This document shows, piece after piece, positions 3,209-5,020 of a stretch of DNA of 5,020 nucleotides. The position numbers and the translations under genes are program-made. The stretch lies in the IMG/VR virus record IMGVR_UViG_2737471846_000016; one strand, 5' to 3'. This DNA is from a virus. Its lineage: Duplodnaviria > Heunggongvirae > Uroviricota > Caudoviricetes. The notes beneath the pieces were generated by a model. It searched no databases. It was not told the DNA's origin and saw only the letters and a list, made by a program, of their open reading frames with translations. How positions within the stretch are numbered: position 1 is the first letter of the stretch; each line of letters opens with the position of its first letter.

Positions 3209-5020
3209 TCAGCCGCCGGACGCACTGCCGTAGTTCACTCCGGTGATCACCGCCACCGCCGCGGTACGGCGACGACGCCAGTTGATCCAGCGCTCCGCAC
3301 GGATGGCCACGCTGCCTGTCTGGAACATGGAAACCAGCTCCACCGGGGACGGCGTGGTACTGTCGCCGCCCGGCTCAGACTGCATTTCCAGTGATGCCTC
3401 GCGGGACATATCCACTGCCACGCCGCCGTCATCCGCCAGATAAATATCCAGGGCATTCACCAGCACCAGCTGGTCACCCACGTACTGGGAGACAATCACC
3501 GGCAGCCCCTGGAAGGAGCCACCCAGCAGGGTCATGTCCGGATATTCCTTCTGACCCAGCGCATTTTTACGCATGGACAGTGCCAGGGCATTGGTGCTGG
3601 ACATCAGCCAGACCGCACCGGTGGGCTGCAGGTTTGCTGCCACAAACTGTCCAAACGCCGCCTCTGCATCCGCATCCGGGTTACCGGTTGATGCCGTGCC
3701 CTTCACATCATGGGTGATGGACGCCGGGGAGACATCTGCCACTGCGGCTTTTTTCGGGTCCACAAAGTCTGTATCCAGACGCGCCACCACCGCTTCCGCC
3801 AGCGCATTACGGACCAGTGCATCAGCAGCCGGACTGGAAAAACGGATCAATTCTTCCGTCAGTACCGCAATGGCCGACACTTTCGCATGACTGAAGGTGA
3901 TGGATTCAAAATCAAACTTCGTCAGGGGTTTTGCCTTACCCTCACCCCCCCAGCCGGCAGCACCACCGGACACCTGGGCGTGCACACGGATATTGAACGG
4001 CACCTGACGAAGTGCAGGGATCCCGCCCTGACCAAATCGCCCGATAATGGTCTGCGGACGCAGGTAATCAATAAAGTCCTGTGCGTATTCCTGATATTCA
4101 GACAGGCTGCCTGCCCACTGCGGATCCGTGGTGGTCCCCGCGCCCACTGCCGATTTCAGGACATGATGCAGACGACTGTCATCCGGATACTGACGACGGG
4201 CCACTTCCAGGGCTTCAGATCGGACGCCTTTAGCCGCAGCCAGCGATTTGGCAAAGCGGGCGAAGCCAATCCCCTTATCCAGTTTCTGCTCCACACGGAT
4301 CACCGGCGCAGAAGCCACCGCGGCCACATTCCCGTTACCGGCCTGTTTCACCGGCTGCGCCGTGGCGGCCTTACCGGCTTCCAGTTCACGCAGGCGCTTC
4401 AGGTGCGCATCCACCTGACGGATTTCCGCTGCGGTGTTGTCGTAATGCTCTTCCTCCTCCACATCCAGCGTGCGCCCTTCCTCTGCGGCTTTGGTCATGA
4501 CCTCCTCAAGGGAGGCTGCCAGCGCTGCACGCTTGTTTTCAAAACTTTTAATCTGTTCACCAGTATTCATTATGGTCTTTTCCTTATGAAAAACGGTTGT
4601 TGACTGTGCCGCAGCGCCGGCAGAAGATGCGATTTTCACCACCGGTTTCCGGTTGCCGGACGCGGCAGAAAACGGGCGGTCGTAAGATTTAATGGTCCGG
4701 ATGGTGCATTCCGCATTCGCGGGCACGGTGACGGCAGACACCTCCATCAGTTCCCAGCGCAGAAAATGCAGTCCGCCTCCGTCCAGAAAGGTGTATTCAT
4801 GGGGACGGAAGCCCACGGACAGCCCCCTGACCAGCCCGGTCTTAATGGCCGCCCAGACCTCATCCAGCCGGGCAGCCAGTTGCGACGGCATATCCGGTAC
4901 GGGCTTCACCAGTGTTGCCGTGATTTCCAGCCCTTCGCTGACCCGGCGTACCGTACACTGCCCCACCGGGCGGGAATGGTCATGCTGCCAGAGAAACGGG
5001 ATCGCACTGCCAAACTCCGC
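3209..5020 (-). CDS. Prohead protease (HK97-family) fused in frame to HK97-fold major capsid protein; 5' end truncated by the window
   Basis: The ORF-track entry 3209..4966 starts at a GTG, but the frame stays open to 5020 (manual translation AEFGSAIPFLWQHDHSRPVGQCTV...). The N-terminal part has prohead-protease motifs (FLWQHD-x3-PVG, GLSVGF, MEVSAVTVPANAE). From the internal Met at 4570..4568 onward (MNTGEQIKSFENKRAALAASLEEV... to the C-terminal VAIRAERWINWRRRRTAAVAVITGV) it looks like an HK97-type capsid protein with an N-terminal delta-like helical region. Confidence 0.85.
   Translation of the reverse strand, partial: AEFGSAIPFLWQHDHSRPVGQCTVRRVSEGLEITATLVKPVPDMPSQLAARLDEVWAAIKTGLVRGLSVGFRPHEYTFLDGGGLHFLRWELMEVSAVTVPANAECTIRTIKSYDRPFSAASGNRKPVVKIASSAGAAAQSTTVFHKEKTIMNTGEQIKSFENKRAALAASLEEVMTKAAEEGRTLDVEEEEHYDNTAAEIRQVDAHLKRLRELEAGKAATAQPVKQAGNGNVAAVASAPVIRVEQKLDKGIGFARFAKSLAAAKGVRSEALEVARRQYPDDSRLHHVLKSAVGAGTTTDPQWAGSLSEYQEYAQDFIDYLRPQTIIGRFGQGGIPALRQVPFNIRVHAQVSGGAAGWGGEGKAKPLTKFDFESITFSHAKVSAIAVLTEELIRFSSPAADALVRNALAEAVVARLDTDFVDPKKAAVADVSPASITHDVKGTASTGNPDADAEAAFGQFVAANLQPTGAVWLMSSTNALALSMRKNALGQKEYPDMTLLGGSFQGLPVIVSQYVGDQLVLVNALDIYLADDGGVAVDMSREASLEMQSEPGGDSTTPSPVELVSMFQTGSVAIRAERWINWRRRRTAAVAVITGVNYGSASGG
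4581..4585 (-). promoter_or_regulatory. Candidate internal ribosome-binding site (AAGGA) upstream of internal ATG 4570..4568 at the protease/capsid junction
   Basis: Minus strand reads TTCATAAGGAAAAGACCATAATGAAT. A local AT-rich patch with an SD-like motif sits about 10 nt before the first Met of the capsid domain, inside the continuous ORF. Confidence 0.4.

Follow-up and report, generated by a model that had tools for sequence, protein, structure and literature searches.

The question raised by the locus described here is whether a single open reading frame (ORF), in which a prohead protease is followed by a major capsid protein, gives rise to one protein or to two. The ORF was found in a DNA stretch of 5,020 nucleotides (nt) from a virus of the Caudoviricetes (IMG/VR record IMGVR_UViG_2737471846_000016), which is referred to here as the window at its full length and in which all the genes are carried by the minus strand. 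The window was found to be 100% identical to the chromosome of E. coli 2013C-4830 (NZ_CP027325.1), and Stx1a-, Stx2c- and Stx2a-converting lambdoid phages were found to be 94-97% identical to it. The protease-capsid frame remains open from position 5020 to its stop codon (Table 1). In NZ_CP027325.1 the full gene contains 1938 nt and codes for 645 residues from an annotated GTG start, and as this start lies 126 nt past the window edge, the window opens at residue Ala43 and the first 42 codons fall outside it. All residue numbers are those of the full protein of 645 residues, in which Met193 corresponds to window 4570..4568.

In the preliminary description of this DNA, the protease was said to run into the capsid without a stop through the linker SAASGNRKPVVKIASSAGAAAQSTTVFHKEKTI, and an AAGGA resembling a Shine-Dalgarno (SD) sequence was pointed out before the first capsid Met in an unusually AT-rich patch. 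The frame and the linker string were confirmed, the AAGGA was found at 4585..4581, 10 nt 5' of the ATG, and the guanine-plus-cytosine (GC) content was 0.30 in 4600..4541 against 0.60 across the gene. Two arrangements had been considered, an obligate self-processing fusion and a nested gene like lambda C/Nu3, and the second is strongly favoured here by the start codon, the SD, the accessibility of the site and the starts of split genes. As these four independent lines of comparison agree, the internal ATG at the junction is shown, at the level of sequence comparison, to be under selection as a translation start. The gene is probably a nested in-frame gene with two starts, which would yield a protease-capsid product, predicted at 69.0 kDa from the 5' start, and an internally initiated product of 453 residues and 48.1 kDa containing the delta domain and the capsid. 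Both products would thereby be made.

The statistics at the DNA level were based on 89 fused loci, dereplicated to 48 representatives sharing less than 70% identity; a degraded pseudogene from Arsenophonus (L008) and a locus with a nonsense codon within the capsid body (L162) were excluded from the comparison. The alignment column of Met193 in 151 protein representatives was found to contain Met in 120 sequences, Val in 11 and a gap in 10, and most of the gaps corresponded to a Met displaced by one to three residues. At the DNA level the junction codon was ATG, GTG or TTG in each of the fused loci with DNA (89/89), and the 48 representatives were found to contain 35 ATG, 12 GTG and one TTG codon. 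Every junction Val codon was GTG (12/12) and the only junction Leu codon was TTG (1/1); ten Val cases that had been picked from the protein alignment before their codons were seen were likewise all GTG (10/10). The joint chance of such a GTG/TTG-only pattern was 1.6e-7 when calculated from the codon usage of each gene, in which the GTG share of Val ranged from 0.13 to 0.62 and the TTG share of Leu was 0.06. Random windows of six codons, taken as a control from the same genes, contained an ATG in 12.6% and any start-like codon in 29.7% of the cases. As Met was replaced only by those Val and Leu codons that are able to initiate, a constraint on the amino acid does not explain the column.

The SD signal was scored as the duplex energy with the 3' end of the 16S rRNA (anti-SD) within positions -20 to -4. 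Across the 48 representatives the mean energy was -7.6 kcal/mol at the junction, compared with -2.6 kcal/mol at all codon positions and -2.7 kcal/mol at other in-frame ATGs, and half of the junctions (24/48) fell within the top 5% of their own gene. On average the junction SD was found to be as strong as the bona fide 5' ribosome-binding site (RBS) of the same genes, for which the mean was -5.6 kcal/mol. The junction was preceded by AAGGAGG in the GC-rich Chelatococcus and by CAGGAGGG in the Pseudomonas phage PAJU2, and at the protein level the SD was seen as variable purine-rich residues such as KE, KG, EG, PEG and QEG. Among the E. coli alleles, the 16-mer TTTTCATAAGGAAAAG and the ATG were invariant and the codons on both flanks were variable.

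The site was also found to be accessible. Within 30 nt on either side of the junction, the GC content was under the gene average in all the representatives (48/48), with a mean difference of -0.12. The junction of the window was the least-structured 60-nt segment of its gene, with a minimum free energy (MFE) of -6.9 kcal/mol against a mean of -18.4 kcal/mol, and 0% of the other segments were as open. For the 48 representatives the mean 60-nt MFE was -9.7 kcal/mol at the junction against -18.2 kcal/mol, and 29 of the 48 junctions were among the least-structured 5%.

These results bear directly on the explanation that only the fusion of 645 residues is made, as an obligate polyprotein in which each subunit frees itself by autoproteolysis and in which selection on the protein retains the Met and the purine-rich codons before it, for instance because a site of cleavage or recognition lies there. 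A continuous ORF with a strong SD at its 5' start would suit such a polyprotein, as would the conserved linker motifs (AASG, PG[AV][ST]G), which could be processing sites, and the annotation of such genes everywhere as a single coding sequence (CDS). However, a constraint at the protein level leaves unexplained why the junction Val is GTG only and the junction Leu TTG only, why the minimum of GC and of structure lies at this site in all 48 genes, and why the SD register is kept in nucleotides while the amino acids vary. The obligate polyprotein is therefore regarded as unlikely.

The nested reading was next set against the distribution of the fusion. The continuous ORF was found in 497 E. coli genomes (at least 80% window coverage) and in 116 phage records. 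The best 120 homologs were all of about 644 residues with 73-77% identity and came from Salmonella, Enterobacter, Klebsiella, Serratia, Kosakonia and Pantoea. When 1.84 billion cluster representatives were searched exhaustively, 12,567 matches were obtained; about 130 of the best 150 representatives were fused, with 630-680 residues and 38-54% identity, no two of them belonging to the same 50%-identity cluster, and about 74 of 80 metagenomic loci were fused as well. The fused share of the relatives was about 90%, and the full-length fusion was present in thousands of homologs from the Enterobacteriaceae to the Alphaproteobacteria, including ORF003 of phage PAJU2, which is annotated as 'prohead protease fused capsid protein'. 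As judged from this conservation, the protease-capsid fusion is shown to be real and under selection. The possibility raised earlier, that the domains are always split elsewhere and that an indel error has joined them here, is at odds with the homologs, in which a minority is split. Three homologs, P0001 (1079 residues), P0123 (1094 residues) and P0132 (1091 residues), were found to contain an N-terminal extension of about 440 residues, with a TerL Pfam domain in P0001; they are either TerL-protease-capsid read-through ORFs or artefacts of assembly or frameshift.

In the split relatives the homologous Met was found to be the start of the capsid gene and to be preceded by an SD in every case. 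They were found in Pelagibacterium (L010), Burkholderia (vB_SBP9 and vB_FUBS1), Moraxella (Mcat5) and Stenotrophomonas (SOVA965) and at the loci L113, L156, L157, L160 and L182. Their capsid N-termini were of the kind MSKFAEQI.., MTLAEQIK.. and MKTYAEQI.., the stand-alone capsid gene of L160 starts with GTG, and for the stand-alone capsid proteins P0198, P0229, P0257, P0262 and P0266 the alignment begins at query residue 193-196. The capsid part of the split L010 was 78% identical to that of the fused L009. Parsimony, applied to a neighbour-joining tree that was built from the capsid part of 63 taxa, gave at least 12 changes between the fused and the split state, with a fused root. In the split loci L101, L113, L156 and L160 the capsid gene was found to lie in the protease frame, and the sole difference from the fused genes was a linker stop codon. 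The protease stop of vB_SBP9, vB_FUBS1 and L160 was formed by the TAA that opens their capsid SD, TAAGGA; this overlap of TAA and SD was noted for L101 (2083..2098), L102 and L160. The window keeps ATAAGGA (within aTAAGGAa) at 4581..4587 on the minus strand, and because the TAA within this SD is out of frame, a shift of 1 nt or a point change could toggle the gene between fused and split. On this evidence the fused and split forms interconvert repeatedly, often via one stop codon, with the capsid start fixed throughout. The constant element is the capsid's own initiation site, and the variable element is whether the ribosomes translating the protease stop before it.

The same evolutionary pattern could be read as that of a relic: split genes would have lost their stop and become fused, frequently and not long ago, and the capsid start and its SD would be leftovers that have not yet decayed. 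The interconversions counted on the tree, several of them by a single stop codon, would fit such a history, and so would the retention in the window of the very string that holds the protease stop in split relatives. It is nevertheless very unlikely, as about 90% of the family is fused and the root is fused by parsimony. In fused clades such as the enterobacterial members (73-99% identity), the linkers are heavily diverged and contain indels, yet the ATG and the SD are kept, and the third-position choice of GTG and TTG is maintained below 70% protein identity.

A further explanation is that the internal SD-like sequence pauses the ribosomes after the protease, or stimulates a frameshift into the out-of-frame TAA/TGA by which free protease would be released. 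It draws on a TAATGA across the ATG and on a T-run (GTTTTTC) 13 nt upstream of the SD. The TAATGA, which had been taken as a clue in the preliminary description, is indeed present at 4572..4567, but it turned out to be incidental: it is missing from L003-L009, from all other genera and, within E. coli, from the second group of alleles (TCAGCA-ATG), and ATGA arises because the second codon is that of Asn or Lys. The TAATGA was accordingly rejected as a functional stop/start or as a target of frameshift. At the known sites of SD-stimulated frameshift (prfB, dnaX) the SD lies upstream of the slip site, whereas here it lies downstream of the T-run, and pausing does not account for the conservation of a start codon; this explanation is highly improbable. 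That a sequencing or assembly error or a strain-specific mutation has removed a stop between two genes could be suspected from the frameshifts in other genes of the prophage copy, but the chance of it is negligible, and an error or pseudogene reading of the fusion was ruled out, because the same continuous ORF is present in the 497 E. coli genomes, the 116 phage records and thousands of homologs in many genera.

Several points weigh against the nested reading. The SD of the window itself was moderate (AAGGA, 10-nt spacing, -6.2 kcal/mol, 13th percentile of its own gene), and the significance therefore rests on the relatives and not on the window sequence. The combined p-values obtained by Fisher's method for these relatives, 1.4e-32 for the SD and 5.6e-33 for the structure, overstate independence because the homologs are related. 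At the 5' start, which lies outside the window, a GTG preceded by CAGGAGG was found with an anti-SD energy of -10.3 kcal/mol, an MFE of -10.9 and an unpaired probability of 0.46, followed at the internal ATG by an MFE of -6.9 and an unpaired probability of 0.53. As the 5' SD is strong, a dominance of the short form is not predicted by the sequence alone; both starts look competent, and the ratio of long to short form would not be predictable from these values. Some of the database proteins listed as stand-alone capsids may be gene-caller picks of the internal start and not split genes. No proteomic, N-terminal or ribosome-profiling data were found in the literature on this protease-capsid family. 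Finally, the portal, TerL and tape-measure genes are frameshifted in 2013C-4830, so that the protease-capsid gene may not be in use in that strain.

The domain content of the protein was found to agree with a boundary at Met193. Pfam Peptidase_S78 (PF04586) matched residues 48-152 with 34.7 bits against a cut-off of 21, and the stricter equivalog TIGR01543 gave 46.5 bits, under its threshold of 59. Pfam Phage_capsid (PF05065) matched residues 386-635 (48.6 bits against 24.2) and TIGR01554 matched residues 204-584 (75.1 bits against 27.5). The NCBIfam model NF045541, 'prohead protease/major capsid protein fusion protein', gave 54.8 bits against a cut-off of 525 and was aligned to residues 48-287 only; as its cut-off was missed by far, that model covers a different fused lineage of the same architecture. 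His55 (in WQHD) and Ser110 (in GLSVGF) were invariant in alignment A1 of 20 sequences and in alignment A3 of 59 sequences reaching down to 36% identity, and by analogy they are candidate catalytic residues. The predicted S78 domain would carry out the proteolysis of the capsid precursor.

An AlphaFold2 model, built on the 59 diverse homologs, had a mean predicted local distance difference test (pLDDT) score of 79.8. It was found to contain a beta-rich domain with strands within residues 4-139, followed by a disordered linker (pLDDT<50 for residues 159-192), two long helices (195-223 and 229-262; pLDDT about 90) and a second disordered stretch (265-283; pLDDT<50). The disorder ends at residue 192 and the delta helix starts at 195 in the model, and Met193 thus sits on a structural boundary. 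The top Foldseek matches of the capsid body were the capsids of Bxb1, HK97, D3 and T5 with a probability of 1.00 and TM(target) values of 0.5-0.74; a sequence search of the PDB gave distant capsid relatives only and no solved fused protein. From the domain matches and the model, the protein was read as protease, linker, delta or scaffold domain and capsid, in that order. From the analogy with HK97, the stretch of residues 265-283 is likely to be the site of the maturation cleavage that removes the delta domain. In the alignments, variation and indels were more marked in the last 20 or so residues of the linker than anywhere else in the protein. The linker was also found to keep two small motifs, (L/R)AA(S/T)G and PG(A/V)(S/T)G, represented in the window protein by AASG and SAGAA (about 4600..4690, residues 160-180), which are candidate sites of autoprocessing or capsid binding. 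In the full-length product the peptide spanning the junction of linker and capsid would be ...HKEKTIMNTGEQIK.

Two modes of initiation are proposed for the nested gene. Ribosomes starting at the 5' GTG would meet no stop codon after the protease and would therefore make the protease-linker-delta-capsid polypeptide of 645 residues. Those that start at the internal ATG, with its AAGGA in an AT-rich unstructured patch, would make the delta-capsid protein of 453 residues alone. Both products would co-assemble into the prohead via their identical capsid parts, and with the long form the protease would be brought inside, attached to it covalently as a passenger. The protease would then remove the delta domains, probably within the disordered residues 265-283, and itself, and the relative strength of the two initiation sites would set the stoichiometry of protease to capsid. 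Co-assembly, the sites of cleavage and the ratio are presumed.

Table 1. Positions of the protease-capsid gene and of its parts in the window
Feature	Position	Strand	Basis or remark
Protease-linker-delta-capsid ORF, 5'-truncated by the window	3209..5020	-	stop TGA 3211..3209
Predicted S78 (HK97-type, MEROPS/Pfam) prohead serine protease domain; in the window, residues 43-155	4682..5020	-	Pfam/NCBIfam matches, invariant H55 and S110, beta-rich fold in AlphaFold2
His55 codon	4984..4982	-	invariant in 59 diverse homologs
Ser110 codon	4819..4817	-	invariant in 59 diverse homologs
Linker, residues 156-192	4571..4681	-	predicted disorder and alignment variability
SD-like AAGGA (within cATAAGGAAAAG), 10 nt 5' of the internal ATG	4581..4585	-	sequence and relatives
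Candidate internal start ATG, Met193	4568..4570	-	comparison with relatives
Delta (scaffolding) domain, helices 195-223 and 229-262	4361..4564	-	AlphaFold2 pLDDT about 90; TIGR01554 alignment from residue 204
Second disordered stretch, residues 265-283	4298..4354	-	AlphaFold2 pLDDT<50
HK97-fold capsid body, residues 293-645	3212..4270	-	Pfam Phage_capsid; Foldseek

In the source genome the locus was found to contain TerS, TerL, the protease-capsid gene, an ORF of 73 residues, the portal gene and the connector gene, in that order. The order TerL, protease/capsid, small ORF (70-110 residues) and portal was kept across the family, including the loci L091, L093, L094 and L101-L104, and distant relatives were likewise found to contain a small ORF between capsid and portal. 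The ORF of 73 residues (window 2943..3164, minus strand) is annotated as hypothetical and overlaps the start of the portal gene by 55 nt. The portal gene (window 578..2997) is frameshifted in 2013C-4830, with the ORFs 2997..1906 and 1901..1635 on the minus strand in different frames, and the TerL and tape-measure genes of this prophage are pseudogenes in RefSeq. Because of these frameshifts the prophage copy is probably defective, and its protease-capsid gene is intact. The ORF 1638..661 (minus strand), annotated either as the portal's C-terminal part or as another, second 'portal protein', was found to contain a tandem repeat of 162 nt at 1046..1473, with 2.3-2.6 copies of 89-95% identity, which codes for repeats of 54 residues (…IPVPRDGRDYDPEVLKQAVNDAVANIPVPADGKSITPDDVRPMLEQMVKEAVSH…). 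Outside the window, past position 5020, the part of locus L001 that separates TerL from the protease-capsid gene was found to contain a hairpin resembling a terminator with a T-run after it (ccgctccggcggttttttt). This hairpin lies some 15-35 nt upstream of the SD that serves the 5' GTG start, and transcription entering the head genes might be attenuated by it.

Nested protease/scaffold genes are known as C/Nu3 of lambda, UL26/UL26.5 of HSV-1 (herpes simplex virus type 1), I/Z of Mu and gp17/gp17.5 of the archaeal virus HFTV1; in these the long product contains the protease and an assembly module, the short product contains the assembly module alone and is in excess, and the long form enters the procapsid through the shared C-terminal part (bioRxiv 10.64898/2026.09.13.751334). 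The window resembles the lambda C/Nu3 type in that one continuous ORF codes for the protease at the N-terminal and for the assembly module at the C-terminal end, and in an internal in-frame start with an RBS at the module boundary, where dual initiation would take place. There are two differences: in place of a separate scaffold, the inner gene is the major capsid protein, whose N-terminus bears a delta or scaffold domain, and the protease is of the S78 (HK97) family, unlike the S49-type protease of lambda C. As the inner product is delta domain plus capsid body, the arrangement is a variant of C/Nu3 and not a strict member, and as the inner gene is the capsid, the protease would be tethered to a shell subunit. 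In P2 gpO the protease is N-terminal to the scaffold, is removed by autoproteolysis and is reported as part of a full-length product only (bioRxiv 10.64898/2026.09.13.751334); the likeness lies in the protease fused N-terminally to an assembly module, and the difference in the partner, which in gpO is a scaffold and not a capsid protein.

In HK97 the delta or scaffolding domain is fused to the capsid N-terminus and there is no separate scaffold protein; the inner gene here is the capsid itself because phages of the HK97 type carry the scaffold as a capsid domain (PMC10275583). The window shares with HK97 gp4/gp5 the protease family (Pfam S78), the capsid family (TIGR01554) and the N-terminal delta domain. 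Unlike in HK97, where a stop lies between the protease and capsid genes, the protease of the window reads through, and the gene order TerL-portal-protease-capsid of HK97 is replaced by TerL-protease/capsid-small ORF-portal. The HK97 protease is said, in work of Duda et al. from 2013, to be targeted non-covalently by its C-terminal tail. Phage PAJU2 is a true homolog with 47% identity, in which the protease is followed by the capsid in one ORF. The protease-capsid fusion has already been recognised as an annotated feature, and in the papers and annotations concerned a single product is given and no internal start is mentioned (PMC9671004, PMC8601537). One further paper, on the cyclic oligonucleotide-based antiphage signalling system (CBASS), was set aside as not relevant to the protease-capsid gene because it deals with protease-scaffold fusions of T1-like phages (10.1101/2023.05.21.541620). 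No description of an internal start in a protease-capsid fusion was found in the literature, and specialists may have described one earlier.

Both the protein families and the strategy in general are familiar, and it is the nested capsid start that seems to lack annotation throughout a very large family. Various names are given to the CDS of 645 residues ('major capsid protein', 'prohead protease', 'capsid and scaffold'). Should the internal start be in use, every annotation of the family, including those of the clinically important Stx phages, lacks the precursor of the main virion protein (453 residues). It is somewhat more likely than not that this family, with thousands of prophages in Gamma-, Beta- and Alphaproteobacteria and many Stx1a-, Stx2a- and Stx2c-converting phages, hides an unannotated capsid gene within a single CDS. 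The protease would be delivered into the prohead covalently joined to a minority of the shell subunits, its dose would be set by two competing RBSs, and the tethered and untethered states would be toggled by one stop codon. The nested protease/scaffold strategy of lambda, Mu, the herpesviruses and an archaeal virus would then extend to phages without a separate scaffold, and with the protease anchored to a shell subunit a simple and testable rule would be given for the number of protease copies per capsid. The presence of one start site in fused and split genes, together with their interconversion by a single stop codon, offers a natural experiment in which covalent and non-covalent modes of protease targeting can be compared.

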